From a virus, in IMG/VR virus record IMGVR_UViG_3300035696_001556, positions 109,495 through 173,494 of that record: a DNA stretch of 64,000 bases. One strand, given 5' to 3'. The position numbers and the translations under genes are program-made. Position 1 is the stretch's first letter. Each line of letters opens with the position of its first letter. Below, one piece after another: positions 17,112 through 61,865 of the stretch. Below the pieces are notes generated by a model. That model was not told where the DNA came from and searched no databases. It worked only from the letters and a program-made list of their open reading frames with translations.

Positions 17112-18110
17112 ATGTCTCTCATCACTAGAATAAATCAGCCTTTTGCATCGTTAACCAAAGATAGTGCTATCCAAGGAAATAGTATTGTCTTTATCAAAGG
17201 TGGCTCTACCATAATAAATGGTAATTGGTTGCAGTTTAATGACCTTAGGATAGACGTACAGGCGCTGGTAGAAAGTTACATAAGTCAGCAAGCAACTAGG
17301 ATTTTTAATACAGTAAACGGGATTTTGTATGTAGTTATAACTCTCAATCAAAGTAGTAAGTTAGAGGTGATACCAAGTATCTCTTTAAACCAGACAACGA
17401 CAGGGAGTGTAAAAGTTTTCAGTTCCTTGTCTGGAAGATTGCCACTGATGCTGGTTACCCTGCAACAGGACGGATCAAATGATTTATCCAGTATCATACC
17501 TATTACAGCTGATGCTATAGAAGTCTACAAAGGTTATGGAAATTTTACATTAATAGGGCAACAAGGAGAGACTGGTCCTCAAGGAGATACAGGGATACAG
17601 AACGGAATAGGACTAACTGGATTAAATGGACTAATAGGTGAACAAGGAATAACAGGTTGTATAGGATCAATAGGAGAAAACGGAGTACTAGGAGCGACAG
17701 GATTGGAAGGACAGGTTGGTGTTTCCATACCCAGAGAGGTATTCATAATACCCGTTAATCCTATAGCTAATTTCGTTGGAGTTCCCTTATCTGTAGATCA
17801 AAGTGTAGGGGTTGCTTTTACTAATCTGTCATTGGGTGATTGGAATAGCCTACTATGGGATTTTGGGGATGGATCAACTTCTACAGATAGTTCCAATCCT
17901 ATAATTCACGCATATGATAATGTTGGTGTTTATACAGTTACCCTTTATTTATACGGTGTAGGTAACAATAGCAGTTCGACTGGAAATTCACCTTTTACTG
18001 TTATTGAACCTTATGACGTTCAGGATACGATAGATCCAAATAATCCATATGGCACTTGGACAACTGTAATAGGAAATGTTAATGTCACACAGAATTCAGT
18101 AGTTCCTTAA
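17112..18110 (+). CDS. collagen-like repeat protein with PKD domain
   Basis: Gly-X-Y run followed by PIANF..FTNLS..WDFGDG..NPIIHAY..GVYTVTL. Confidence 0.75.
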   Translation: MSLITRINQPFASLTKDSAIQGNSIVFIKGGSTIINGNWLQFNDLRIDVQALVESYISQQATRIFNTVNGILYVVITLNQSSKLEVIPSISLNQTTTGSVKVFSSLSGRLPLMLVTLQQDGSNDLSSIIPITADAIEVYKGYGNFTLIGQQGETGPQGDTGIQNGIGLTGLNGLIGEQGITGCIGSIGENGVLGATGLEGQVGVSIPREVFIIPVNPIANFVGVPLSVDQSVGVAFTNLSLGDWNSLLWDFGDGSTSTDSSNPIIHAYDNVGVYTVTLYLYGVGNNSSSTGNSPFTVIEPYDVQDTIDPNNPYGTWTTVIGNVNVTQNSVVP

Positions 18111-18122
18111 TAAAGGAGATTT

Positions 18123-19286
18123 TTGATGTCAGAAACTGGAGCATTAAAGCACATCATTCAAATAAACGACCTGAGAAGTAATTTAGAGCAAGGCTTAACT
18201 GGAGCTGGTCTTACTGAACTAAAAGCTAATCAGATAGCAATAGCTTTAGGAACAACAGGCCCTTCTCCCGTTTATCGACTTTTGTTCAGAGACAGTGTTG
18301 GAGGTCCTCATGATGTCGCTAATTTAACTGATATTGGAGCTGGTCCTGCTGGAGCAACTGGAGTTCTTGGATCTACGGGTCTTAAGGGAGCAACTGGAGC
18401 ACAAGGAGTAACAGGACTTTCCGGTGTTGGTGGCGGTGGAGGTGTTACTGGAAGTGGAGTCAGCACTCAAGTAGCTGTTTGGACTGCTAATGGGTCTATT
18501 GGTGGATTTAATGGATTTATTTATACAGGAGGTTCTTATTCTCCAATTTTATCTTTAGTAAATGGGGAAACCGGTGGGACAACTGTACTTAATTTTGTTG
18601 ATGAAGATAGCCAAATTTCTTCAGAAGGTAGCTTTGACCTTAATTCAGGTGGAGATTTTAATTATTCAACAACTGATCCAACAGGAAATTTTAACATTAC
18701 CTTGGATCCTGAAGGAACTGGGAGTTTTTATTTACATTGTCAGGTAGCTTCTTTCTCACTCAGTCCAAGTGGAGGAGCAGGAAGCTATACTCTTAACTTT
18801 TCTGCTGGAACTACACTTGTTGCCAAATTTGAAGGGGGTTCCGGTTTAGATCAGGTATGGTCTGCAGGAGCAAATAATGACAATCTTATAATAGCATCTG
18901 GCGGAAGTTTTGAGCTACAGGCAAATTCAAACATTTTTTTACGGGCATCTTATTCTGTTGAAGAAGGAGTTTATAATGATAGTAATTTATATATAATGAA
19001 TTTTATTGGGTCAAGTTTTTCTCCCCCTTCAGCGGATGTGGCTGGAAGTATACAAATGTCAGCTGTTGGAGATCTTAATATTTTTTCTGGATTAGGCGCT
19101 GATGATGAGCGTACAATTAACATGTATTGTTATACTTCTGGTGGCTCAACTATAAAGTTATTAACTCTTTCTCCAAATTTTAATGGAAGTGGAACAGTTT
19201 TTATATATAGTCTTCCTAGTGACTCTGGAGGACTTACAACTGGGGCACTGTATAATTCAAGTGGTACATTAAAAATTAAATCTTAA
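18123..19286 (+). CDS. collagen-like repeat tail-fibre protein
   Basis: GAGPAGATGVLGSTGLKGATG run; C-terminal LPSDSGGLTTGALYNSSGTLKI is typical of fibre tips; RBS AAGGAG, ATG at 18126. Confidence 0.65.
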   Translation: MMSETGALKHIIQINDLRSNLEQGLTGAGLTELKANQIAIALGTTGPSPVYRLLFRDSVGGPHDVANLTDIGAGPAGATGVLGSTGLKGATGAQGVTGLSGVGGGGGVTGSGVSTQVAVWTANGSIGGFNGFIYTGGSYSPILSLVNGETGGTTVLNFVDEDSQISSEGSFDLNSGGDFNYSTTDPTGNFNITLDPEGTGSFYLHCQVASFSLSPSGGAGSYTLNFSAGTTLVAKFEGGSGLDQVWSAGANNDNLIIASGGSFELQANSNIFLRASYSVEEGVYNDSNLYIMNFIGSSFSPPSADVAGSIQMSAVGDLNIFSGLGADDERTINMYCYTSGGSTIKLLTLSPNFNGSGTVFIYSLPSDSGGLTTGALYNSSGTLKIKS

Positions 19287-48748: not shown

Positions 48749-50059
48749 ATGTATAGAGATGTTTTAGGTTTTTCAATATCGCCCTTTATGCAAAGGGTCA
48801 TGAATATACATGGATTTTTTGGTTCAATCATGCGTACAGGAAAGAAATCGGAAGACAGCAGTAACAAACTTCCTCCCGGAGTACCGATCCCGGTTTTACC
48901 AGTAGACTATTTGAAAGTTCGTCCAGATAGTTGGATAGGGGGCGAAGGAGCATATGTAGTTCCCGTTGACTCAGATTGGGGACTCTGGTTCAACTTCACC
49001 ATGAATAATCCTTTTAACACAGCAGTCCTTCCTTCTATAAAAGGCATGAATCCTCTTACGGGGCAGCGTGTGAGTGGGTATGATCTTGAAGAGTATCAAG
49101 ACAAATGTCCTGTACATAACAAACCCTTCAGCAAAGGTAATCTTTGTACGGAGTGTGGTTTCAAATGGCCCTATCAGAACTATCTTGCGCATCCTGGAAA
49201 ACTTTGGGTCGACGGATTTAGGACTCCGGATGGTAACGTACGCCAGTTTTATTTTACAGAAGAGATGGCGAAATCTATCCCAGAGCTGGTAATTGGTAAA
49301 GAAGATACAGTCCCAGCATTTGGATTTTGCTTCTACAAACTCAAGGAGTATGACGGGCATTTTGAAGAAGGAAAGTACGTCAAAAACGAATTTCCAATAA
49401 ATCCTCGCTCACAATATAGCTCTTATTGTGGAGGTAGTATAGGAATAGGTACTTCTTGTGCTTCTAGTATGTTTTATTCCCCAAGTCTGAGCACTGATTT
49501 TCTTGCTAAGCCAGCAGATATGGCCAGTAGAAGTGCCCGTTACCGTAAAGGACTAGCAGGACCAAGGAAATTCTCTACTGGAGGATCAATGCTACACATT
49601 TCTGGTGTATCTTTGGACTCAGTATCTTTTAAAACTGATTTGGCGGATGCAGACAGTTCTACAAAGGCATCTTATCTGTCAGCTAGTAATACAGCCTCAA
49701 TAGAGAGTGCTTCTAATGGAACTACTCTTAATTTTAGTTCGAGTGCAGATGGTGGAGCTTCGTATGAAAATACTTTGATAGGAGATGATGAGAAAGGCAC
49801 AGATATTTTACGTGAATATGAAAGTCCTTTACGTAAATCCGCAGAGGTGGGCATCGGAGCAGGAGCAAAAATAAAACAAGCTTTTGCAAAAAGCAGTAAG
49901 TCTTTAGAAGACTGGGAGAAGAAACCGGCAGGAGTTATCAGACTGTACTTTGTCTTCCAGGAAGAATTTGAAAGATATGCTGCAGCAGGTTTTAACAATC
50001 TCGAAGGAAATGAAACAGGATACCTTGAAGGTCTCCCAGTAGGAGGATCCCATGAATAA
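48749..50059 (+). CDS. hypothetical protein with zinc ribbon and Ser/Gly-rich linker, coupled to the vWA gene
   Basis: CPVH..CTEC, WVDGF..VRQF, C-terminal GIGAGAKIKQ; overlaps the start of the vWA ORF. Confidence 0.75.
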   Translation: MYRDVLGFSISPFMQRVMNIHGFFGSIMRTGKKSEDSSNKLPPGVPIPVLPVDYLKVRPDSWIGGEGAYVVPVDSDWGLWFNFTMNNPFNTAVLPSIKGMNPLTGQRVSGYDLEEYQDKCPVHNKPFSKGNLCTECGFKWPYQNYLAHPGKLWVDGFRTPDGNVRQFYFTEEMAKSIPELVIGKEDTVPAFGFCFYKLKEYDGHFEEGKYVKNEFPINPRSQYSSYCGGSIGIGTSCASSMFYSPSLSTDFLAKPADMASRSARYRKGLAGPRKFSTGGSMLHISGVSLDSVSFKTDLADADSSTKASYLSASNTASIESASNGTTLNFSSSADGGASYENTLIGDDEKGTDILREYESPLRKSAEVGIGAGAKIKQAFAKSSKSLEDWEKKPAGVIRLYFVFQEEFERYAAAGFNNLEGNETGYLEGLPVGGSHE

Positions 50060-50762
50060 GGTAGATTTATTATTTATATGTGATATAACGGGATCTATGG
50101 GTAGCCTCATAGATGATGCCAAAAAAAGAATGAAAGATATCTTGAGCAAGCTCTCTTCAGAATTCAATGTGGATACCCAAGTAGGTTTGTCTCTCTATCG
50201 TGATCACGTATCTCAGGGGGACCCTTTTACCGTGGTTACTTTTGATCTCATGCCTATAGATAAGATCCAAGAAAAAATAGATCAGATATTCGTTGATGGG
50301 GGTGGCGACTGGCAAGAAGCAGTCCTCGATGGAATTATTGAAGGAGTTTCCAATATGTCTTGGAGAAAAGAATCCAAGCGGATTGCTTTTCTCATAGGTG
50401 ACGCTCCCCCACATGGTATGGATGAAGATACTTTTTGCTGTACTTGTGGAAAAACTTGGGGGGACGCTATCCAGGTAGCTGAAGAGAAATGTGTGCCTAT
50501 TTATTCAATACCTTTGGATGATAAAGAAGAAGTGAGGAGTTCTTTTAGGACTCTTTCTACTTTTACCGGAGGGTTGTTAATTGAAGCTGATAATGCCTTG
50601 GATGCTGTTCTGGAAACACTCAGGGATCAGTTCGGAGAGTTAAATTTAGGCTCCAGAGTATTAGATCTACTTTCAAAAGATATATCGGCAGAAGAGATTT
50701 GTAAGATGCTTAACATTACTCGGGAAAAGTTATCTGAACTTGAAACAAAAACAACAGCATAA
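50052..50762 (+). CDS. vWA domain protein with C-terminal HTH-like tail
   Basis: MIDAS DITGSM, YRDH, GGGDWQEA, IGDAPPH. Confidence 0.88.
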   Translation: MNKVDLLFICDITGSMGSLIDDAKKRMKDILSKLSSEFNVDTQVGLSLYRDHVSQGDPFTVVTFDLMPIDKIQEKIDQIFVDGGGDWQEAVLDGIIEGVSNMSWRKESKRIAFLIGDAPPHGMDEDTFCCTCGKTWGDAIQVAEEKCVPIYSIPLDDKEEVRSSFRTLSTFTGGLLIEADNALDAVLETLRDQFGELNLGSRVLDLLSKDISAEEICKMLNITREKLSELETKTTA

Positions 50763-51975: not shown

Positions 51976-52004
51976 TTGACATTTTTCTTAAATCAGTGTA
52001 TATT
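51976..52004 (+). promoter_or_regulatory. sigma70-type promoter TTGACA-17-TATATT driving the ncRNA array
   Basis: Consensus -35 at 51976-51981 and -10 at 51999-52004; A-rich upstream element. Confidence 0.85.
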
Positions 52005-52057
52005 TAGTTTCAGCAGAAGAGGCAATCTCGTTTAACTAGGTCAGTCGCCCGTTCTTT

Positions 52058-52281
52058 GAAATAGTCGGTTTGCTCACATCGTGTGGCTTACATTATTATA
52101 GCAAGTAATAACACGATACTCAGTGCTCCCTGCAAATAGCAGGGGTGCAAGAGTGTCACACGCATGGAAGCCTACCGCCGTTTTATAGTGTCAACCCTAA
52201 AGTTGAAGTTATAAAATTTTAGAGCCTAAGGCGGCAAGGTTTTCATGCAAAGCAGCACAACTCGAGCAGGCCGATTGTTTC
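52058..52281 (+). ncRNA. Y-RNA-like unit 1 (multi-hairpin, non-tRNA cargo)
   Basis: 18-bp closing stem 52058-52075/52264-52281; scaffold motifs present; three internal hairpin domains. Confidence 0.8.
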
Positions 52282-52326
52282 TTTAAAACCGGAATACTGT
52301 ACCTCGTTTCAATAAGAATGATCTTT

Positions 52327-52457
52327 GAAATAGTCGGATTACTCGCATCGTCAGGCTTACATTCTATCACAGGGACAGAACGATGCTTCTACACCTGGCC
52401 GTGGGCTGGGTAAGTAGAGGCATCAAAGCATGACAACTTGAGTAGTCTGATTGTTTC
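52327..52457 (+). ncRNA. Y-RNA-like unit 2 (long-hairpin cargo)
   Basis: 18-bp closing stem 52327-52344/52440-52457; cargo GATGCTTCTAC-ACCTGGCC..GGCTGGGT-GTAGAGGCATC. Confidence 0.8.
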
Positions 52458-52523
52458 TTTAAAATAGAAATGCACCCCATCGTTCCCTGCGGGATGGTGG
52501 TAAGAAATTTGATCTTTGAAATC

Positions 52524-52674
52524 TGAGTCTTTGCTCGTACTGTTGAGGCATACATAGCTTTTTCAGCTCGTTTGGTCGAGCAATTTCCATATATTTCCAT
52601 ATAAGGAATAGGTAGCTGGTTCAAATCCGGCAGAAAGCACCAAAAATTGCATTGACGACTTGGGCAAAGACTCA
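52524..52674 (+). ncRNA. Y-RNA-like unit 3 carrying a linear tRNA-like domain (52557-52642) ending in ACCA
   Basis: 13-bp closing stem; acceptor GCTTTTT/AGAAAGC, D arm GCTC..GAGC, T arm GCTGG-TTCAAAT-CCGGC; 10-nt duplication in the anticodon arm. Confidence 0.85.
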
Positions 52675-52703
52675 CTTTTTAAAATAAATTCTTTGAAATA
52701 ACG

Positions 52704-52843
52704 TTTGGATTTTACGACCACTGTAGAGGCGTACATTGTGATTAGCTCAATTGGTAGAGCAATCGCTATTAAGCGATGGGTTCCGGAGTTCAAATCTCCG
52801 GACACATAAAATGACCGCATCAACGACTTTCGTAAAGTCCAAA
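52704..52843 (+). ncRNA. Y-RNA-like unit 4 carrying a degenerate linear tRNA-like domain (about 52736-52807)
   Basis: 14-bp closing stem; TAGCTCAATTGGTAGAGC D arm, ATCGC/GCGAT arm with 6-nt loop, CGGAG-TTCAAAT-CTCCG T arm; weak acceptor, no CCA. Confidence 0.85.
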
Positions 52844-52861
52844 TTTTTTAAAATCGATCTT

Positions 52862-53019
52862 TGAAATATTCGTGCTCGTACTGCCAGGGCATACATTTAG
52901 TTCGTTGGTTCAAATCCAACTATCTTCGCCAAACTGAAGATGTAGACCAGTGGTTAGGTCAATAGATCGCAAATCTATCATTAAAAATCTGCAATGACGA
53001 CTTGAGCACGGATGTTTCA
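52862..53019 (+). ncRNA. Y-RNA-like unit 5 carrying a circularly permuted tRNA (52899-52978)
   Basis: 16-bp closing stem; order is T arm, 3' acceptor TATCTTC-G-CCA, AACT linker, 5' acceptor GAAGATG, D arm, anticodon arm (GCA). Confidence 0.85.
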
Positions 53020-53039
53020 CCTTTACAAATAGTTCTTTG

Positions 53040-53211
53040 ACAGTGAGCAGAATGAGGTCACACTCCCACTATTGGGGCATACATATTTCGAGGTTCGACT
53101 CCTCATCCCCCGATTACCGGGGGAAAGTCCTACGGTAGGACACTTGTATTCGGAACAAGCAAGAAAAAAATTGCATCGATGACTTGAGTGTGATCTCTTT
53201 CGACTCACTGT
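53040..53211 (+). ncRNA. Y-RNA-like unit 6 carrying a circularly permuted tRNA (53090-53159)
   Basis: Interrupted 8+12-bp closing stem; GAGG-TTCGACT-CCTC, TCCCCCG-ATTAC-CGGGGGA, GTCC-TACGGTA-GGAC, CTTGT-ATTCGGA-ACAAG (TCG). Confidence 0.85.
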
Positions 53212-53224
53212 AAAAATAAAAAGG

Positions 53225-53256
53225 ATACCGGGGCAAACGTCTCGGTATTTTTTTTT
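53225..53256 (+). terminator. intrinsic terminator closing the ncRNA array
   Basis: ATACCGGGGC-AAAC-GTCTCGGTAT followed by a run of T. Confidence 0.85.
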
Positions 53257-53268
53257 GTAAAAAGTTCT

Positions 53269-53296
53269 TTAACATCGTTATGTCAAAAAGTATATT
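53269..53296 (+). promoter_or_regulatory. putative promoter TTAACA-16-TATATT for the Ubl / Ro60-like genes
   Basis: Same TATATT -10 as the other promoters in the window; 38 nt upstream of the Ubl ATG. Confidence 0.5.
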
Positions 53297-53334
53297 ATTA
53301 TAGTCGACGATAAACCGTTAACCAGGAGGTAGCC

Positions 53335-53622
53335 ATGAACGCAGTTACGAACCAAACCGTAGTCCACGTCCATTTCGACGGACGTTCCGATGACATCCCT
53401 CTGGATGTCCTTTTTCCTGTGACCCCGCCTGAGCTCTCTGCAGAGTTCGAGCGTAATGCCAGCGGTGTAGCCGCAGCAGGGTCCGCCTTCGTTCGTACAG
53501 TCAAAGAAGGTCTTGCAAATCATTACGACCGTCCGGTCAATGAGTTTGCGGACTACATCGTTGACTTCACCGAGAACCAGAACATCACGGTTCGTCCGAA
53601 GGCCGAGTTCGGTTCGAAGTAG
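53335..53622 (+). CDS. putative ubiquitin-like (beta-grasp) protein with C-terminal Gly-Ser-Lys
   Basis: 95 aa; strand-strand-helix-strand-strand pattern VHVHFDGRSDDI..VKEGLANHY..YIVD..ITVRPKAEFG; RBS AGGAGG; E1 and JAB genes nearby. Confidence 0.6.
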   Translation: MNAVTNQTVVHVHFDGRSDDIPLDVLFPVTPPELSAEFERNASGVAAAGSAFVRTVKEGLANHYDRPVNEFADYIVDFTENQNITVRPKAEFGSK

Positions 53623-53650
53623 AGTGATCGCTCTCTTTGGTCTTTTAACT

Positions 53651-53672
53651 GGGGTACTTACAAGAGTGCCCC
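53651..53672 (+). terminator. intergenic hairpin after the Ubl gene (attenuator or stabiliser)
   Basis: GGGGTACT..AGTGCCCC. Confidence 0.4.
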
Positions 53673-53706
53673 TTCATATCCATATAATATAACAAAGGAT
53701 ACCGCC

Positions 53707-55281
53707 ATGAATCAGCAACAGCGTCAGCCTACCCAGGAAGAAGACATCCGCCTGAAAATGTTAAATAGCTTTATGACTTGTCCCCACAGGGACACGGTAG
53801 AGCTAAACAAACTTCATGCTGAGTTGCAGGAAAAAGATCCTTTGTTCTATGTGCATCTTGCAGCATGGTATCAGAGGCACGGAGATCTCCGTGACCACAA
53901 AGAGATTTTCTCAGCACGTCTTATTACCGACATCTATCTGCCAAACAGAGAGGCCGGTCTTGCCCTCTTCCAGAAGCATCCTTTCTTCCTGAAGTTCAAG
54001 ATTTTCAACTTCATCAAGGGAAAAGATGTTAAGATACGTACGAAGACCGGTAAGAAAATCGTCGTCGAAATTAAAAACAAAAAGAAAACAGTCGACGAGG
54101 TCAAGATCGACAAAAAACATGTCGGACTTGACAAAAATATCCCTTCTTCTTTCTTAACCGAACTGTCACGGTACCTAAACTGGCTGGAAGCGAATCCGGA
54201 GCAGTTTGATACCGTAGCCATGAGGAATGCTTCGGATCTGAAGGCTCTTTATGTTAATCTCAGATTCAAGCATTCGAAGAGGACCAATGATATCCTCTTT
54301 GAGAAAAAGTATCCGAAGAATAGCAAAATGGCTTCTTTCAAAGCGATTATCGAAGCCAAAGATCCCACCAAGCAAGCTGAGATGATCGTAAAGGAGAAGA
54401 TCCCTTTTACGACTGCTATTGGTCTGGTCGAAGACCCGACCCCAGCTGTTTGGGTAGCACTTATCGATGCAATGAGTCCCCAGGAAGCCATTAACCACGT
54501 GGCCACCTTTGAGGAAAAAGGTCTTTTGGATAACGTGGCTACCAAAGACCTTATTATGAAGAAGCTCAAGAAAGCGGAGACGACCAAGACTGTTTCGGCT
54601 CTTAAATCTAAAGCAGCCACAGCTACGGGTCGTATCAAGAACGAAGAAGTCGTAAAACAGATGGATAACATCGCTGACAAGCAAATTAAAAAAGGCGGTG
54701 TTATCAGGGTTTCTACGGCTATCTGTGTCGATAAATCAGGTTCCATGACTAGGGCTATTCAGGTGGGCAAGAATGTCGCGGCTCTGGTTTCTGGAGCTAC
54801 GGAAGCACCGTTGCATGTGTTTGCTTTTGATCAAATGGTTTATCCAATAGTCTCCAGGGAACAAACTCTTACGGGATGGGAAGCGGCTTTCAGGCCTATT
54901 ATCGCCAATGGTAGGACCTGCATGAGTTCTTGTGCGGACTACCTTATCAAAAAGAACATCCTGGTGGAGCAGTTTGTCTTCATTACGGATGAAGGGGAAA
55001 CGGATTCTCCTACTTTTGCCTCCAAGTACCTGGAATACAAAACAAAATTTAATACCTCTCCGCATGTCGTTATTGTTCATGTCGAGGGAGGCGAGAGGTC
55101 GAGCACTTTGTTCTCGGATCGATTAAAGCAAGCAGGGATCGAGTTTGACACCTACACGCCGAAAGAAGCGGACTACTATTCTCTACCGGGGTTGATCCCA
55201 CTTCTCGCTCGGAAGACCAAACTCGATCTTCTTTACGAGATCATGGATACTCCTTTACCGGCAAGAAAAGTGTATGCTTAA
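53707..55281 (+). CDS. Ro60/TROVE-like protein: helical N-terminal domain plus C-terminal vWA domain
   Basis: 524 aa; DPLFYVHLAAWY..DLRD resembles TROVE N-termini; MIDAS DKSGSM..GRTC..FITDEGE; adjacent to Y-RNA-like array. Confidence 0.7.
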   Translation: MNQQQRQPTQEEDIRLKMLNSFMTCPHRDTVELNKLHAELQEKDPLFYVHLAAWYQRHGDLRDHKEIFSARLITDIYLPNREAGLALFQKHPFFLKFKIFNFIKGKDVKIRTKTGKKIVVEIKNKKKTVDEVKIDKKHVGLDKNIPSSFLTELSRYLNWLEANPEQFDTVAMRNASDLKALYVNLRFKHSKRTNDILFEKKYPKNSKMASFKAIIEAKDPTKQAEMIVKEKIPFTTAIGLVEDPTPAVWVALIDAMSPQEAINHVATFEEKGLLDNVATKDLIMKKLKKAETTKTVSALKSKAATATGRIKNEEVVKQMDNIADKQIKKGGVIRVSTAICVDKSGSMTRAIQVGKNVAALVSGATEAPLHVFAFDQMVYPIVSREQTLTGWEAAFRPIIANGRTCMSSCADYLIKKNILVEQFVFITDEGETDSPTFASKYLEYKTKFNTSPHVVIVHVEGGERSSTLFSDRLKQAGIEFDTYTPKEADYYSLPGLIPLLARKTKLDLLYEIMDTPLPARKVYA

Positions 55282-55313
55282 GAAGATAGGCCACTGGTTG
55301 TATGTAACCATAT

Positions 55314-55341
55314 TTGGGGCATCACTGCCCCAATTTGGTTT
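55314..55341 (+). terminator. probable intrinsic terminator
   Basis: TTGGGGCA-TCAC-TGCCCCAA followed by TTTGGTTT. Confidence 0.55.
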
Positions 55342-55437
55342 ATCTATTTGCTTTCTTCTTGGTGTAGGTTATTCGATTTACTGGACGGTTGAAGGTATAT
55401 CCTGGATAACGAGGCACATACATATTTTGATTCAGTG

Positions 55438-55551
55438 AAATTGTGTGAGGTAGTTCCAAATATTAATTTGGCTCTCGCTGATTCCTTTATGATGGGTGGG
55501 ATAAGGCGAGATTTTAAATAGGTACTCAATCCTATCTACCTCACATAATTT
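55438..55551 (+). ncRNA. candidate four-way-junction RNA
   Basis: 16-bp closing stem AAATTGTGTGAGGTAG/CTACCTCACATAATTT enclosing three hairpins, in an intergenic gap. Confidence 0.5.
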
Positions 55552-55566
55552 TTGAAGGGATAGATT

Positions 55567-55767
55567 ATGTGGTGTGCTGTCTGCAACAAAGATCTTGTGA
55601 AATGTGTCTGTCCAGATATAGAAGAGCGACTTACTTCTCTTGCAGGGACTCCTGCTGCTCCCGCTGCTGCAATGAATCTAATGAGGCGAATGGCGACACA
55701 AGACAAAGACAGTAAAGCTGTACCAAAACTACTTCTTAAAAAGACAACTAAAAGAAAAAGGAGATAA
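55567..55767 (+). CDS. small Cys-rich protein
   Basis: CAVC..CVCP; basic tail. Confidence 0.6.
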   Translation: MWCAVCNKDLVKCVCPDIEERLTSLAGTPAAPAAAMNLMRRMATQDKDSKAVPKLLLKKTTKRKRR

Positions 55768-55770
55768 TTT

Positions 55771-56037
55771 ATGGGTTCAGGCACAGTTTATATGTACGGG
55801 ATGTTCCCTGCTAGGTTTAAGAAAAAGAAAGCACAATTACCTCCTGAGCAGAAACCCAAAGATACGCCCATATCTTATGATGACGTGGTCAGCAAACTGC
55901 TCGATCACATAGAGGCCATGTGTGATTCTCCCGATACTCCACCGAAACTAAAGGTAGAGTCTATCCAAAAGATGCTCTCTGATTTTCGAAGAGGAGATTG
56001 GGAAGACTGGCTGATTCCTCCTAAGAAAGAGGAATAA
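55771..56037 (+). CDS. hypothetical protein
   Basis: RBS AGGAG; 88 aa. Confidence 0.65.
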   Translation: MGSGTVYMYGMFPARFKKKKAQLPPEQKPKDTPISYDDVVSKLLDHIEAMCDSPDTPPKLKVESIQKMLSDFRRGDWEDWLIPPKKEE

Positions 56038-56041
56038 TAAA

Positions 56042-56893
56042 ATGAGCGACGATGTCTTAGAAATCATCCGTAAATTAGGTGAAACCGAAAACTCCCTCTC
56101 CAAGAGGGAATTCATTTCTCCGGTATACAAAAACAAATATGTAGTCACTCGAATAGATAAGATAGCCTACACATTCTCAATTCCCGAAAGTAAACCTGGG
56201 TGGTACAGGTTTCGTCCTGTAAATCGCAAAAAAGCGAAAATACTTGGCCCAAGTAGCTTCCAGGATACAGAGATTTATCAGAAATTACTTGAAAAAGTGA
56301 GGATAGTTTTAGTGCAAAGAGATGGGGATGTTTTCTACGGGGTGCCTTTTAAGACTAATCAACAAGGTTTGGACATTAAGATCCTCTATCCTGTCTATTT
56401 GGTTCTGGATGATATGGTACAAGATTTCGATGAGATTATCTGTCGCTACGATGGGGCTAATCTTTGGTATCAAGCCGTTGAAGCCAATAATGACCAAGCC
56501 AAGGTCAACTATCTTCGTGAGAGTTTGAAAGCTGCTGCCCTTCCCAAAAAACTAGCCTACTCGGGTTTACGCTTCGAAGACAAAATGGCTTATGCCATCC
56601 GGTGTGAAATTGATAAGAAAGTCCTGGAAAGAAATAAAGAATATCGTCTCAAGCATGCCGTAGAGCACGCTGGGGGTATCTTTAAATCTTTCACGGAAAA
56701 AGGGGATCATTTTAATGTGTCGTACGAAGTCGATGGAGAAAAATATACTTCCACTATCGCTAAAAACGATGAGCTGAAAGTATTGACTGCTGGGATCTGT
56801 CTGCAGAGTCAAGATCAAAAGTTTGATCTTACAAGTCTTATAAGCGTTATCCGTGAGGGGCAGCACAGGGATCTCATTCACCGTACAAGGTAA
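56042..56893 (+). CDS. putative divergent E2-like conjugating protein
   Basis: C-terminal helix, beta-meander, AGICL, then DLTSLISVI helix recalls the UBC G-x-I-C-L catalytic region; lacks HPN; context of Ubl, E1 and JAB. Confidence 0.45.
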   Translation: MSDDVLEIIRKLGETENSLSKREFISPVYKNKYVVTRIDKIAYTFSIPESKPGWYRFRPVNRKKAKILGPSSFQDTEIYQKLLEKVRIVLVQRDGDVFYGVPFKTNQQGLDIKILYPVYLVLDDMVQDFDEIICRYDGANLWYQAVEANNDQAKVNYLRESLKAAALPKKLAYSGLRFEDKMAYAIRCEIDKKVLERNKEYRLKHAVEHAGGIFKSFTEKGDHFNVSYEVDGEKYTSTIAKNDELKVLTAGICLQSQDQKFDLTSLISVIREGQHRDLIHRTR

Positions 56894-56904
56894 AGGGGTA
56901 CAAT

Positions 56905-57120
56905 ATGAATTGCCCACTAGCTCCGCGCTATGAAAGATTCAATTTTAAGGATTGTGTCACGGGCTATGAGGAGTGCAGAGAAGATAAGTGTAACTTCTAT
57001 AATGTTGCTCGTAAGAGATGCATTTTTGTGACTATGGCGGAAGACATTGAACAGATTAAAGTGTCAAATGCAGCCATAAATACGGATTTAACAACGAAAC
57101 CTCATCCGTCTGTATTGTGA
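56905..57120 (+). CDS. small Cys-rich protein
   Basis: CPL..C..C..C..C pattern. Confidence 0.6.
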   Translation: MNCPLAPRYERFNFKDCVTGYEECREDKCNFYNVARKRCIFVTMAEDIEQIKVSNAAINTDLTTKPHPSVL

Positions 57121-57317
57121 ATGAAGCCATGACTGTGAGCGATCAAATACAAGAAATTAGAACCAAATGCATGCTACAGACCAAATGCAAAAAATGTACC
57201 ATGCGCGGTATTTTTTCTTGTAAGTTTAGAAAGAATTGCAGACCATGGCAGTGGGATCTGAATAAAATTAGAGCGTGGTTACAAGAGCCAAAGGAGTACT
57301 CAGGTGACAAAAAATAA
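57117..57317 (+). CDS. small Cys-rich protein
   Basis: C..CKKC..C..CRPWQW; GTGA start/stop overlap. Confidence 0.55.
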   Translation: MNEAMTVSDQIQEIRTKCMLQTKCKKCTMRGIFSCKFRKNCRPWQWDLNKIRAWLQEPKEYSGDKK

Positions 57318-57759
57318 ACTGAAAAACAAACAGCGTGGTCTTCAGAAACTGTTTGACAGTTTCCCTACCCATATATCGCTTGCCAATCATGATGAAGGGT
57401 GGGCCATTAGACCGAAGGCAATGCAAAAAAGATTTAAAAAAATATGGGGTCAGGAACAAACTCCTAGTCTTTATTTTCCCATTATTATTCAATGGTCCGA
57501 AAAAGGTCGAGGTTTTGGAGAGTATGCTTTTTGGCAGCTTGACGGACAAATATTTTGTAACAATGGGTGTGATTCAAAGGAAACTATAAAAAGGATACTA
57601 TGTCAAATGGTCGATCAGGCTATTTTTATGGATCCTTCGGATGGAGAAAAGGTCAATCCAGAACATCGGAAACTGATAAACCGAGAAAGACTCTTGTTCT
57701 GTGCTGCGATTAAACAAGAACAAGAAAAGTCAGAAAGCAAGAAATCACACAATAACTAA
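57304..57759 (+). CDS. hypothetical phage protein
   Basis: 151 aa; WSEKGRGFGEYAF. Confidence 0.65.
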   Translation: MTKNKLKNKQRGLQKLFDSFPTHISLANHDEGWAIRPKAMQKRFKKIWGQEQTPSLYFPIIIQWSEKGRGFGEYAFWQLDGQIFCNNGCDSKETIKRILCQMVDQAIFMDPSDGEKVNPEHRKLINRERLLFCAAIKQEQEKSESKKSHNN

Positions 57760-57833
57760 AAGAGAAAGAAACTATATTAAAAAACACATGATAAAATATA
57801 ATAAAAATACAAAAGTTATTGGAGTATAAAAAC

Positions 57834-59888
57834 ATGAAGTTGATTATAGTTGAATCTCCGGCCAAAATAAGAACTATCCAAGGATTCTTGGGTGGTGAAT
57901 ATAAATTAGCTGCGAGTATGGGGCATATTTATAGGATTATTCCAAAAGATAGCTCTATAGATATAAAAAATAACTATGAACCAACATATGAGGTTATCCC
58001 TGAAAAGACTAAAGTTGTTAGTGAGTTGAAATTGACAGCAAAAAAAGCAGAAATTATTTATATAGCTAGTGATCCAGACAGAGAAGGTGAGGCTATAGGA
58101 TACGACATTTTACATAGAGTTTTAAAAGATGTTAAATGTCCTATAAAACGTATTACTTTTAATTCTATTACAAAATCTGCTGTACTTGCAGCTTTAAAAA
58201 ATCCTAGAGATATAGATTTAAATCTATACCATGCTCAACAAGCTAGGTCTGTATTAGATATGCTCGTGGGTTTTAGGGTATCAAGAGTATTGTTTTCTAA
58301 GATAATGCGAGGTTTATCAGCCGGAAGAGTCCAATCTATAGGCTTAGAACTTATAGTGAATCGTCAAAAAGAAATAGATGCTTTTATTAAAGAAGAGTAT
58401 TGGGATATTGTTGGAAAATTTCAAACAAAAGATCATAAGAGCTTCACTGCTATGTATAATAGTAAAGAGAAGCTCACTAATGGGGAACAAACTAAAAAAA
58501 TAGCTGCTGATATAGAAAAAGAGCCTAAATGGGAAATAGAGTCTATTAATAAAGACACTAAATCCAGAAGTCCTACACCCCTATTTCATACCTCATCTCT
58601 TCAACAATTTTGTTATTCAGCCTGGGGTTGGGATAATAAAAAAACCATGAGTGTGGCACAGAAGTTGTATGAAGGTTTTCCTGTAGGGAATAATCCTAGT
58701 ACAGGATTAATATCTTATATGAGAACAGATTCTTTTAATATAGATCCTGAATCTCTTAAAAATGTAAGGGATATGATTCAAAACAAATATGGCTCTACTT
58801 ATATATCTAGTACTCCAAGATACTATAAATCTAAAAACAAAGCTGAACAATCTGGACATACAGGTATATTATGCCCTCATTTAGACTATACCCCTTCTAT
58901 AGTTAAAACCAGTATACCAGTAGATGAGGCTAAACTTTATGAAGCTATTTATAATAGATTTGTAGCATGCCAAATGTCTGATGCTACATTTGATACATCT
59001 AAAGTTACTATTAAATCGGGGAGTGCTAAACATATTTTTACAGCTAATGGTCAGACTATGAAATTTGATGGATACCTTAAAGTCTGGATATATTCTACAG
59101 CTAAGGAAGAAGTACTTCCAGTATTAAAAGAAAAAGAAGAAGTTTTTTTAGAATCTTTAGATCCACAACAACACTGGACTCAGGGTCCTCCAAGAATGAA
59201 TCCCGCATCATTGACAAAAGAAATGGAGGCTTCTGGAGTTGGAAGACCTTCCACCTACGTTTCCGTAATAGAAACTATAAAGAAAAGACAGTACGCTGAG
59301 ATAGTTGACAAAGCATTTGTCCCTACAGATCTTGGTAAAAAAGTGTGCGCTTTTCTAATACCTAACTTTCCTGAGCTTATGGATGTAGAGTATACTGCAA
59401 GAATTGAAGATCAGCTTGACGATTGTGCAGAAGGCAAGATTGTGTGGTATAAAGTAGTAGATGAATTTTACAAAGAATTAAAAAAAAGACTGGTAGCTTC
59501 TAAAGATGCTCCTTCTATGCGCACTAACGAAGCCACCACTATTCTTTGCCCTACTTGTGGCAAATATAATCTTGTTAAAAAAAATGGTAGATACGGAAAC
59601 TTCTATGGATGCGCTGGATATGCCGACAAAAAGAAATGTAAAGCTACATTTAAAATAGGACCGGATGGGCAACCCATTATCGCTCCTGTTGTGGAGAAAG
59701 TATATTTAGAAGGTGTGAAATGTGACAAGTGTGGTAAAAAGATTGTTGCTAGAAAATCTAAAAGAACCGGAAAAGAATTCTATGCTTGTAGTGGTTTTCC
59801 AAAATGTAAAAGATTATTTGATGCAGGAGGTAATCACTTAGAGTTTAAAAAGAAATTTTATAATAAAAAAACCAACCAAAATGCTTAA
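57834..59888 (+). CDS. topA: type IA DNA topoisomerase I
   Basis: LIIVESPAK, ASMGH, ASDPDREGEAI, SAGRVQ, GLISYMRTDS (catalytic Tyr), GVGRPSTY, two C4 zinc ribbons; RBS GGAG before ATG 57834. Confidence 0.95.
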   Translation: MKLIIVESPAKIRTIQGFLGGEYKLAASMGHIYRIIPKDSSIDIKNNYEPTYEVIPEKTKVVSELKLTAKKAEIIYIASDPDREGEAIGYDILHRVLKDVKCPIKRITFNSITKSAVLAALKNPRDIDLNLYHAQQARSVLDMLVGFRVSRVLFSKIMRGLSAGRVQSIGLELIVNRQKEIDAFIKEEYWDIVGKFQTKDHKSFTAMYNSKEKLTNGEQTKKIAADIEKEPKWEIESINKDTKSRSPTPLFHTSSLQQFCYSAWGWDNKKTMSVAQKLYEGFPVGNNPSTGLISYMRTDSFNIDPESLKNVRDMIQNKYGSTYISSTPRYYKSKNKAEQSGHTGILCPHLDYTPSIVKTSIPVDEAKLYEAIYNRFVACQMSDATFDTSKVTIKSGSAKHIFTANGQTMKFDGYLKVWIYSTAKEEVLPVLKEKEEVFLESLDPQQHWTQGPPRMNPASLTKEMEASGVGRPSTYVSVIETIKKRQYAEIVDKAFVPTDLGKKVCAFLIPNFPELMDVEYTARIEDQLDDCAEGKIVWYKVVDEFYKELKKRLVASKDAPSMRTNEATTILCPTCGKYNLVKKNGRYGNFYGCAGYADKKKCKATFKIGPDGQPIIAPVVEKVYLEGVKCDKCGKKIVARKSKRTGKEFYACSGFPKCKRLFDAGGNHLEFKKKFYNKKTNQNA

Positions 59889-60723
59889 ACCTGTTATAAA
59901 AAATGGTAAAATTTTAAAATCTTTGGTTATTAAAATTTGTGATAGCTGTGGTAAAGAACTCGTAACAGATACCTATACAGCTAAAACTCAACGAAAGCAT
60001 AGATCTCATAACAATGATAAGGATTTTTGTTGGGGGTGTTCTCAAAAAAATAGAGTAATGCCAAAAGGAGAAAACTATGGAAATTTTATACACGGAATTA
60101 GTAATCAGGGTTATAGGAGAGTTACAGTGGATGGAGTACGTCAACAAGAGCACAAATACATATACGGTCTGAGTATAGGTAGAAAATTAGAAAATCAGGA
60201 ACAGGTTCATCATATAGATTTTAATAAATTAAACAACAACATAGAGAATCTTTACCTATGTAAGTCCCTTTCGGAGAATTTTAAATTAAACGTATCTATG
60301 CAAAAGTGTGGTTTTATTTTTTTGAATAAAAGAATATGGTTTGACTACAAAAAGAAAGTATATTCTTTAAATAAAAGTAATGTACCAGACATCAAAGAGC
60401 CCGTTGTTCTTTTACCCGCTTATGCTAAAAAACTTTATGTTAAGAAAAGCAGGGACACATTCTATGTCATGTACTTAAGAAAAAGACATGATTGGCAAAG
60501 ATATCACATTGCTGTAATGGAGGCCTTCATAGGTAGAAAATTTAAAAAAGGGGAAGGTGTTCACCACATAAATGGGAATACTTTGGATAATTCAATAAGA
60601 AATCTGTGTTTAGTAACAAATGCAGAGCATCAAAACGCACATAAATCTTTGTTGGCCTGCGCAGCAGAGCTGTTTAGAAGAGGTTTATTAACTTTCTCAA
60701 ATGGAGAGTACAAGTGTGGATAA
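59881..60723 (+). CDS. HNH homing endonuclease with two HNH domains
   Basis: EH..GRKL..VHHIDFNKLNNNIENL and YH..GRKF..VHHINGNTLDNSIRNL..H; N-terminal CxxC..CxxC. Confidence 0.85.
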   Translation: MLKPVIKNGKILKSLVIKICDSCGKELVTDTYTAKTQRKHRSHNNDKDFCWGCSQKNRVMPKGENYGNFIHGISNQGYRRVTVDGVRQQEHKYIYGLSIGRKLENQEQVHHIDFNKLNNNIENLYLCKSLSENFKLNVSMQKCGFIFLNKRIWFDYKKKVYSLNKSNVPDIKEPVVLLPAYAKKLYVKKSRDTFYVMYLRKRHDWQRYHIAVMEAFIGRKFKKGEGVHHINGNTLDNSIRNLCLVTNAEHQNAHKSLLACAAELFRRGLLTFSNGEYKCG

Positions 60724-61171
60724 AAGCATAATGGAAACTGAAGAAAAAGAAGAAGTTGTTCAGGAAGGTTTTACTGAGGAAGTCTGGTTCCTTTATGGTA
60801 TCAGGATCTTAAACTTTTTCTTTGGTTTCACTGTTTATCAGAACAAAGGAGAAGTGGCTTACGTAACCTTTGACTGGAAGAAAGCTTTCTCGTTTCTCCC
60901 TTTCATCAAAGACGCCAACAAATTCCTTATTGGGTTCTATCACACGCACCCGGGCGGTGACCCTGCTCCTAGCGGCACGGATACTTCTACGATGGGCACA
61001 TGGGTAAAAGCAATGGGAAAACCTATGCTAGCAGGAATTAAAAGCGGTAACCGTCAGAAATGCTATCTCTACAAGAGAGTCGCACCCAGATCCTCCGACA
61101 TAAAGTATAAGAGGATAAGCTCTACCTGGAACGGTAAGCTGTTTTGCGGTATATATACGGAGGGAAAATAA
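60701..61171 (+). CDS. JAB/MPN+ (Mov34) metallopeptidase
   Basis: Upstream EE plus JAMM motif GFYHTHPGGDPAPSGTD (HxH-x7-S-x2-D). Confidence 0.85.
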   Translation: MESTSVDKSIMETEEKEEVVQEGFTEEVWFLYGIRILNFFFGFTVYQNKGEVAYVTFDWKKAFSFLPFIKDANKFLIGFYHTHPGGDPAPSGTDTSTMGTWVKAMGKPMLAGIKSGNRQKCYLYKRVAPRSSDIKYKRISSTWNGKLFCGIYTEGK

Positions 61172-61220: not shown

Positions 61221-61865
61221 GTGAACACACTCGTCCATGAAGAAGTCTACCGAGGAAAAAAGCTCCTCGATAAAATGGCTGTACAGCACCTAATAGTGTG
61301 TGGCTGCGGAGCAGTAGGCTCGAATCTTATCGATAATGCTGTACGACAGGGGTTCAAGAAGATAACGGTAATCGACTTCGACCGTATAGAGGACCACAAT
61401 AGACACACCCAGGTGTGGGATAAAAGACTCGTTGGATCCCTTAAGGCTGCGGCTATCAAAAACTATGTCTTTAACGTTATGAGCGATGCGAATGTAGAGG
61501 CTGTTACCAAGAAACTGGATGAGACCAATATCAAAAAGCTTTTCGTAACAGGAGGTATCGTTGTAGACGGGTTTGATAACTCTGCCAGCAGGAAGCTTGT
61601 TACCTCCTACTGTAAAGAGCATAAGATCACTTGTCTTCACGTAGGTCTTTATAAAGACTATGCTGAAATCATTTGGAACGAATACTACAAGCCGCCAGAG
61701 CCCTCTACGGCTGCGGATGTCTGTGAGTATCCCTTGGCCAGGAATGTCATTCTTATGGCTACTGCAGTGGCTACAGACGTCCTTATCAGGTATTTGGCCT
61801 CCGGAGTAAAAGAATGTTACATGATAACACTTAAGGATTTTAAGATCACGAAGATGGAAAGATAG
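61221..61865 (+). CDS. ThiF/E1-like ubiquitin-activating adenylyltransferase
   Basis: GCGAVGS, IDFDRIEDHNRHTQ, KA, VDGFDN..R; candidate thioester Cys in DVCEYP; GTG start with RBS AGGAGG. Confidence 0.9.
   Translation: MNTLVHEEVYRGKKLLDKMAVQHLIVCGCGAVGSNLIDNAVRQGFKKITVIDFDRIEDHNRHTQVWDKRLVGSLKAAAIKNYVFNVMSDANVEAVTKKLDETNIKKLFVTGGIVVDGFDNSASRKLVTSYCKEHKITCLHVGLYKDYAEIIWNEYYKPPEPSTAADVCEYPLARNVILMATAVATDVLIRYLASGVKECYMITLKDFKITKMER

Follow-up and report, generated by a model that had tools for sequence, protein, structure and literature searches.

In the bacterial BilABCD system, the JAB-family peptidase BilC trims the ubiquitin-like protein (Ubl) BilA after a single glycine, Gly97, and so removes the cap residue Ala98 (PMC10557695). 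Similarly, an Rpn11 homolog of Caldiarchaeum subterraneum matures a ubiquitin precursor by removing the residues past its terminal glycine (PMC6043591). Given these two cases, a built-in activation step by C-terminal trimming is a known kind of mechanism. Here, we analysed a window of 64,000 nucleotides (nt), i.e., the last 64 kb of the 173-kb virus record IMGVR_UViG_3300035696_001556 (positions 109,495 to 173,494 of the record; CheckV completeness 37%), in which a gene at 53335..53622 encodes a 95-residue protein that ends in a lone glycine followed by Ser-Lys. With a probability of roughly 60%, we consider this protein the precursor of a beta-grasp-type Ubl modifier, which is trimmed by a JAB/JAMM peptidase, activated by a minimal E1-like enzyme and works with a Ro60-like protein and tRNA-like RNAs.

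When compared with BilABCD, the phage module would share the single reactive glycine with a short cap, a JAB peptidase from the same gene set that exposes this glycine and removes conjugates, and a cognate E1. On the other hand, BilABCD has a multidomain E1 with a CYS domain, a diverged E2 (CEHH type), a role in bacterial anti-phage defence and no RNA-binding partner, whereas the module studied here has a single-domain E1 of 214 amino acids (aa), no recognisable E2, a phage as its carrier and a Ro60-like protein among its members. No sequence similarity is detectable between the phage Ubl family and BilA. The SAMP/UbaA/HvJAMM1 system of Haloferax and the TtuB/TtuC system of Thermus are alike in their small Ubl, of a beta-grasp fold that is predicted for the phage protein, a minimal E1 of the MoeB/ThiF type, a JAMM peptidase of the desampylase type, the connection with tRNA biology and the lack of canonical E2 and E3 enzymes (for part of these features see PMC4443979). 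Their Ubls, members of the ThiS/MoaD families that also act as sulfur carriers, have a Gly-Gly end, while the phage Ubl has an aromatic-Gly end, lacks a ThiS/MoaD match and is linked both to a Ro60-like protein and to a protein with OB folds and an invariant cysteine. The Caldiarchaeum operon differs in its true ubiquitin with Gly-Gly, its E1, E2 and RING E3 and its lack of a Ro60 link. Among eukaryotes, single-glycine Ubls are represented by Atg8/LC3 (Phe-Gly plus a tail that is cut by Atg4), Atg12 and UFM1 (Val-Gly-Ser-Cys). The phage protein resembles them in the aromatic or hydrophobic residue before the glycine, the short unconserved caps and, presumably, the trimming that E1 activation requires, a likeness that need not reflect homology; their trimmers are cysteine proteases, and their E1s (Atg7, Uba5) and E2s are dedicated ones.

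The Ubl gene and its signals are located as follows:

53335..53622, forward strand: Ubl precursor gene (ATG start, 95 aa, stop codon at 53620-53622)
53335-53613, forward strand: predicted mature Ubl, i.e., residues 1-93
53614-53619, forward strand: codons of the Ser-Lys cap that follows Gly93
53324-53329, forward strand: Shine-Dalgarno sequence AGGAGG, 5 nt 5' of the Ubl ATG (direct sequence reading)
53269-53296, forward strand: promoter-like TTAACA-N16-TATATT, sigma-70-like (10/12 positions, a consensus match only)
53651-53672, forward strand: 9-bp hairpin without a U-tract, inside the 84-nt spacer between the Ubl and Ro60-like genes

An earlier note on this DNA had described a Ubl whose single glycine is masked by Ser-Lys and which lacks Gly-Gly, encoded by a GC-rich gene with a strong ribosome-binding site and a hairpin behind it. 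The open reading frame (ORF) is as described there, i.e., the protein ends in ...ITVRPKAEFGSK-stop (ITVRPKAEFG-SK), with the lone glycine at residue 93 and no Gly-Gly. Likewise, the AGGAGG ahead of the ATG bears out the strong ribosome-binding site, and the GC content of the ORF (0.53) exceeds that of the flanking 288-nt windows (0.38-0.46). The downstream hairpin is present with its 9 bp; however, no U-run follows on its 3' side, such that it stands as a hairpin only and a terminator is not demonstrated, and the folding of the whole spacer exceeds that of its shuffles only by a modest margin (z of -1.8). Abundant expression of the Ubl is only suggested by such signals in the sequence. That the ORF is not a chance product follows from 10 close homologs (E-values of 1e-28 to 1e-49) and 99 representatives found by profile search.

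We screened the protein against Pfam, NCBIfam and PHROGs, which yielded nothing even at an E-value of 10. Pfam searches with 64 members of the family gave scattered chance matches only, with neither ThiS nor MoaD among them. By these sequence comparisons, the Ubl belongs to a real family for which Pfam, NCBIfam and PHROGs hold no model. The close homologs are 59-90% identical to it, and all ten keep Gly93 together with the preceding TVRPKAxFG, while the tails after the glycine differ in nearly each of them (E, SR, K, V, A, IK, LNVEFEK, EFGEFGE). The profile search over 1.8 billion representatives returned proteins of mostly 55-126 residues, and the family motifs are hVRfdGrS near the N-terminus and NGNxTvRPeAvFG at the C-terminus. 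The alignment of all 64 Ubls is too divergent for pattern scans. Counts of the C-terminus refer to the 101 family members in which the motif could be placed. The glycine is kept in 100 of them and is the final residue in 64 (63%), i.e., it is both nearly invariant and often terminal, as the earlier note had expected of the homologs. The remaining 37 carry unconserved tails of 1-21 residues (one residue in 19 cases, two in 10 and 3-21 in 8). The residue preceding the glycine is always aromatic (Phe 86, Tyr 12, Trp 3). For the annotation of genes so far called 'hypothetical', the signature ...NGN-x-T-[VIL]-R-P-x-A-x-[FYW]-G at or near the C-terminus can be used.

Within the tails, that of the close homolog P0006 (EFGEFGE after AEFG) is a tandem triplication of the EFG end, which may reflect slippage at the reactive end.

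An AlphaFold model built from the 64-sequence alignment reaches a mean predicted local distance difference test (pLDDT) value of 74. It is composed of two strands, a helical insert (residues 23-42), a long helix (50-64), two further strands and a floppy tail from residue 89 on; in the model, the order of these elements matches that of ubiquitin. When the model was compared with the PDB via Foldseek, the best E-value was 0.6 and the top rows were UBL domains, SUMO, NEDD8 and UFM1, while the same search against BFVD gave nothing below an E-value of 0.1. VIA-align against 48,161 chains lists almost exclusively beta-grasp proteins, with Z scores of 4.0-4.8. Among them are MoaD (5mpo_B; Z 4.6, root-mean-square deviation (rmsd) 3.2, 66 residues aligned) as well as ISG15, PB1 and FERM F1 domains. 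Ubiquitin itself (1ubq, residues 1-76) aligns with residues 6-93 of the model (Z 3.8, rmsd 3.2, 60 aligned), and the chain 8tyz_B from a bacterial E1-E2-Ubl complex scores Z 3.6. The modelled fold is consistent with a beta-grasp from end to end; the scores alone are no proof.

The enzyme to which the Ubl would be passed is encoded further downstream:

61221..61865, forward strand: gene of a minimal E1-like adenylating enzyme (ThiF fold, 214 aa); Cys167, in the loop motif DVC[DE]YPLARN, is invariant

Beside the loop cysteine, its Gly-rich loop, the Arg/Gln, the Asp and the FDN residues are invariant. The protein consists of the adenylation fold only, i.e., a rhodanese domain and the zinc-binding CxxC pairs are absent. 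Its best NCBIfam matches are ThiF models, all of them below the cut-off. The solved relatives comprise Uba1, Uba2 and Uba6 (E-value 1e-17), MoeB, MccB and ThiF (1e-11 to 1e-12) as well as Cap2.

For the prediction of the complex, we combined the E1 alignment with the Ubl alignment trimmed to residues 1-93 and performed three runs along with three controls. The interface score ipSAE (interaction prediction score from aligned errors) was 0.74, 0.74 and 0.73 for E1 with Ubl(1-93) and 0.00 for the best control; a value of 0.74 is reached by 58 of 80 solved complexes and by 2 of 110 mismatched pairs. The partner pLDDT is 83 and the contacts agree by at least 97% among the runs. In the predicted complex, Ubl residues 87-93 run over E1 residues 27-32 (the Gly-rich loop), 116-120 (FDN) and 140-148, such that Gly93 contacts residues 30 and 142 within the adenylation pocket. 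Furthermore, the invariant Gly16-Arg17-Ser18 of the Ubl is predicted to pair with the invariant TLxD strand at the C-terminus of the E1. The predicted docking has the geometry of MoeB-MoaD and ThiF-ThiS. That is, the Ubl-E1 structure prediction proposed in the earlier note resulted in a confident docking with Gly93 in the adenylation pocket, and it supports binding of the Ubl by this E1 as far as a model can.

The second enzyme of the pathway is the peptidase to which the earlier note had assigned the removal of Ser-Lys:

60701..61171, forward strand: JAB/JAMM metallopeptidase (156 aa), candidate trimming and deconjugating enzyme

Its zinc site (H81-x-H83, S91, D94) is invariant in 15 homologs, most of which also have the upstream Glu. 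It passes the Pfam Prok-JAB model with 26.3 bits (cut-off 25) and weakly matches the NCBIfam desampylase model. The nearest solved relative is the Rpn11 homolog from Caldiarchaeum (6fjv, E-value 8e-8), and AMSH, Rpn11 and PfJAMM1 are further ones, such that its best solved matches are JAMM peptidases specific for Ubls. We assessed whether tails and JAB genes go together among the modules in which both Ubl and E1 were seen. A JAB gene is present in 13/13 modules with a tailed Ubl and in 14/21 with a bare glycine. All 7 modules without JAB thus encode a bare-Gly Ubl; these loci lack a JAMM motif throughout, and in them the gene of the E1 directly follows that of the OB/Cys protein. This amounts to a one-sided Fisher p-value of 0.022. 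When both traits are traced over a phylogeny of the Ro60-like proteins, there are 3 changes of the JAB state and 6 of the tail state, which leaves 3 independent contrasts. The association is one without counter-example, not a proof. Since the peptidase is also found in the 14 modules whose Ubl already ends in glycine, trimming cannot be its sole job. By analogy with BilC and HvJAMM1, deconjugation is likely its main role, and we infer that it trims Ser-Lys as well. Altogether, the interpretation given in the earlier note, i.e., a capped single-Gly Ubl that needs trimming, is supported, and the checks of fold and glycine conservation, two of the conditions it had named, did not refute it.

A minimal E1 next to a JAB would also suit a sulfur carrier of the ThiS/MoaD/TtuB/Urm1 type. 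Here, Gly93 would be adenylated by the E1 and converted by a host sulfur donor into a thiocarboxylate, whose sulfur would thiolate the phage tRNAs or tRNA-like RNAs, and the JAB would merely trim the precursor or clear adducts. JABs with such tasks, namely QbsD and Mec+, act in known sulfur-carrier pathways, and TtuB, Urm1 and the SAMPs are Ubls that serve tRNA thiolation. The single-domain E1 with its sub-threshold ThiF matches in NCBIfam, the presence of MoaD among the top structural neighbours of the Ubl and the position of the module in or beside tRNA arrays in many relatives fit this explanation. However, no conserved gene of the module encodes a rhodanese, cysteine desulfurase, PP-loop or Fe-S thiolase domain, and the E1 itself carries neither the rhodanese domain nor the CxxC pairs. 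Moreover, the Ubl ends in Phe/Tyr/Trp-Gly rather than Gly-Gly and has no ThiS/MoaD match in Pfam even at an E-value of 10 and none in NCBIfam; the E1 profile scores the Uba1/Uba2 chains above MoeB/ThiF, and most bare-Gly modules retain their JAB. We thus consider a sulfur carrier unlikely and continue with the Ubl as a modifier.

To place these genes in context, we surveyed the six-frame ORFs of 17 phage or assembly loci and 80 metagenome loci with our own profiles. The metagenome relatives number 446 in total. The conserved series is Ubl, Ro60-like TROVE/vWA protein, the OB-fold protein with an invariant cysteine (in the following p283), JAMM peptidase and minimal E1. It recurs in dozens of phage and metagenome contigs, usually beside tRNA or tRNA-like genes, and its order is kept across Ro60-like proteins that are merely 35-56% identical. 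The E1 is present in 34 of the 35 modules long enough to judge, the exception being locus L003. The same order is also found in a Rubripirellula chromosome; within this phylum, the Ubl is present in 1 of 301 genomes, and no JAB of the module family was found in that genome. In L001, a related 115-kb contig with a 61% identical Ubl, the series reads Ubl, 525-aa protein, 283-aa protein, small ORF, JAB, small ORF and ThiF. Within the window, two more genes lie in between:

57819-60723, between p283 and JAB: topoisomerase III gene (689 aa; Toprim, Topoisom_bac and zinc ribbons) and HNH endonuclease gene (280 aa)

Both are missing from the same place in L001 and hence look inserted, which splits the module and accounts for the 7 kb between the Ubl gene and those of JAB and E1.

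The tightest partner of the Ubl is the Ro60-like protein, which the earlier note does not mention; the features concerned are:

53707..55281, forward strand: Ro60-like protein gene (524 aa; helical N-terminal part and vWA domain)
52736-52808 and 52936-53025, forward strand: two tRNA-like elements (Rfam tRNA, 36 and 32 bits, above threshold; called by ARAGORN in neither case)
L105 764-2554: in-frame fusion of Ubl and Ro60-like protein (protein P0181), with p283 and JAB downstream

In 43 of 71 loci, fewer than 400 nt separate the end of the Ubl gene from the Ro60-like gene downstream. The vWA domain has an intact metal-ion-dependent adhesion site (MIDAS) of the form DxSxS (D342, S344, S346), which is invariant in the family. 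A search of the PDB with the family profile gave just three matches, all of Ro60 type, namely 9l5y_A and 9kop_A, both the TROVE protein (E-value 2.6e-4), and Rsr 2nvo (0.14). Homologs of the 524-aa protein match the Pfam family vWA_Ro60, while the Pfam TROVE model fails to match the protein itself, which would make it a very divergent branch. Both tRNA-like elements sit in the non-coding stretch immediately 5' of the Ubl gene. In relatives, the Ubl gene lies within tRNA arrays and, in L011, L019 and L020, is flanked by tRNA genes on either side; L010 has a tmRNA gene directly after the E1 (18861-19209). In size, in the putative layout of a helical part and a vWA domain with MIDAS, and in the adjoining tRNA-like RNAs, this part of the module resembles Ro60/Rsr with Y RNAs as described for Rsr-YrlA (PMC4201824) and for the Ro60 of the Thermus phage phiLo (PMC12135203, 9l5y). 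In the literature searched, in which subscription journals are poorly covered, we found no described Ro60 locus with a Ubl, E1 or JAB and no paper linking Ro60/TROVE with ThiF, JAB, E1 or a Ubl. Neither the libraries nor the literature searched contain this family of Ubls or the OB/Cys protein, and neither records a coupling of such genes with a Ro60-like protein; these are the new parts.

The fusion in L105 reads ...RPNAKWG-TT-TEEDVRK... at its junction, i.e., two Thr follow the conserved glycine. It resembles ubiquitin-fusion precursors and would need a cut after the glycine. The fusion, the close linkage of the two genes and the intact MIDAS could also be read in terms of a Ubl that serves the Ro60-like particle as a subunit or regulator without covalent attachment, e.g., when bound by the vWA MIDAS; it would then never be activated, and E1 and JAB would serve something else. 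Such a purely non-covalent role is hard to hold given a near-invariant glycine that is terminal in 63% of the members and followed by freely varying tails in the others, which points to C-terminal chemistry; in addition, L003 is the only locus of sufficient length in which no E1 belongs to the module, and the predicted docking puts Gly93 into the adenylation pocket of this enzyme. We regard it as very improbable and the least probable of the explanations considered. When the Ubl is taken as an activated modifier, a mechanistic wiring of its pathway to the Ro60-like ribonucleoprotein is conceivable, such that the Ubl tags the ring, proteins caught on its RNA clients or even the tRNA-like RNAs and the JAB reverses this; we put forward this coupling tentatively and give it somewhat less than even odds.

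The last member of the series is the OB/Cys protein:

56042..56893, forward strand: p283 gene (283 aa; two OB-like barrels, a long helix and a small beta-meander domain)

In its model (pLDDT 86), two OB-like barrels precede a long helix and a four-strand meander, after which Cys253 and a final helix follow. Cys253 is located in a loop within the motif AGICL and is invariant. Structural neighbours of the OB part include, at Z 5-6.4, the Mpa interdomain, S17, IF1 and the cold-shock domains of RNase II, and Pfam found no domain in any of 66 p283 homologs. The succession of helix, four-strand meander, Cys253 loop and helix resembles the core of an E2. However, E2 matches are none: the Pfam E2 families do not match the C-terminal domain, a CEHH-type His/Glu pattern is not conserved and the invariant residues include a single Cys. 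By its model, p283 is a candidate for a thioester carrier or an RNA-binding adaptor.

The two OB folds of nucleic-acid-binding kind also bear on a non-protein acceptor, i.e., the activated end would be joined to the 3' end of a tRNA-like RNA by an aminoacylation-like ester or to a nucleotide (cf. MccB), and the Ro60-like ring would hold the conjugate. The Ubl gene is repeatedly and tightly placed beside tRNA-like RNAs and the Ro60-like gene, the module has no recognisable E2 and MccB is among the solved relatives of the E1. Nevertheless, this remains pure inference as nothing points specifically to an RNA acceptor, and the invariant cysteines in p283 and the E1 loop equally fit a thioester relay to a protein. 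We hold it for quite improbable, even more so than the sulfur carrier, and return to the protein modifier.

For p283 and its neighbours, we also considered an assignment of the Ubl, the 524-aa and the 283-aa protein as decoration, capsid and Ig-domain proteins, based on an RTX-adhesin repeat match of p283. This match was discounted since it reflects a short strand pattern with a score inflated by four repeats. The whole set was ruled out by the 524-aa profile, which matches Ro60 chains, and by the p283 model of two OB folds and a Cys domain.

For the Ubl modifier, we propose the following course. The precursor would be made in abundance, judging from the expression signals. Ser-Lys would then be cut off after Gly93, most likely by the JAMM peptidase of the module encoded at 60701. 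The freed carboxylate of Gly93 would enter the adenylation pocket of the E1 encoded at 61221 and be adenylated, as the docking prediction and the intact motifs suggest. Subsequently, the Ubl may move to a cysteine, either Cys167 of the E1 or Cys253 of p283, and from there to a target that belongs to the Ro60-like particle or lies close to it, such that a covalent conjugate would form. The JAMM peptidase would reverse the attachment, which its presence alongside bare-Gly Ubls suggests. The whole pathway would act with the Ro60-like RNA-binding protein encoded downstream and with the tRNA-like RNAs.

Several observations weigh against this reading. The fold matches of the Ubl are weak, i.e., no Z score reaches 5 (at most 4.8) and the Foldseek E-values are at least 0.6, and the complex score may reflect a likeness to the solved MoeB-MoaD and ThiF-ThiS complexes. 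The link between tails and JAB comes down to 3 independent JAB losses, for which a sign test is not significant after correction for the tree, and the JAB is kept in 14 modules with a bare-Gly Ubl. No E2 is recognisable in the module, and the fold searches with p283, whose rows are filled by OB domains, returned none. In the window, 7 kb separate JAB and E1 from the Ubl gene. The related records L016 and L017 (52 and 63 kb) encode the Ro60-like protein, p283, the JAB and the E1, while a search for the Ubl in their analysed fragments found none. Finally, the fusion of Ubl and Ro60-like protein is known from one contig of one sample.

Independent of the mechanism, an aromatic-Gly Ubl without a name in the family libraries travels with an E1, a JAMM peptidase, an OB/Cys protein and a divergent Ro60-like protein, mostly in huge phages and also in a small number of bacteria. 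Provided that the Ubl is truly conjugated, RNA quality control in prokaryotic viruses would be connected with ubiquitin-like tagging, by a compact five-gene system whose link could be reconstituted in E. coli. If the wiring to Ro60 holds as well, huge phages would carry a protein-tagging switch on an RNA-surveillance particle, for which we found no description in the literature searched.

With regard to its setting, the window stems from a huge phage. Its large ORFs all share the same strand, with tail-fibre, helicase and DNA-polymerase genes among them, and a megablast search of positions 52000-58000 against GenBank phages gave no match. Upstream of the module, a 436-aa protein of no known family and a 236-aa vWA protein are encoded (48749-50762); both genes are kept in the closer relatives L001, L007, L008 and L010 and not in the distant ones. 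The Ro60-like proteins of L016 and L017 diverge most, and long acidic tails are found on the p283 proteins of these two records. The p283 homolog P0161 is deposited as a hypothetical protein of a metagenome-assembled genome of Njordarchaeales (Asgard). According to a preprint on Asgard viruses, one group of these viruses has three ThiF genes and a Ro60 gene, which the authors treat separately (10.1101/2021.07.29.454249). The module may extend to archaeal viruses. Downstream of the module, L001 (15787-18534) encodes an M23 peptidase, a cytidylyltransferase-like protein and CoaBC-like products with the Flavoprotein and DFP domains, which hints at coenzyme A-related metabolism. Among the huge-phage relatives, L013 encodes a small signal recognition particle RNA (17829-17918), and group I introns occur in the tRNA arrays that flank the module (L011 3941-5131, L013 1369-1558).

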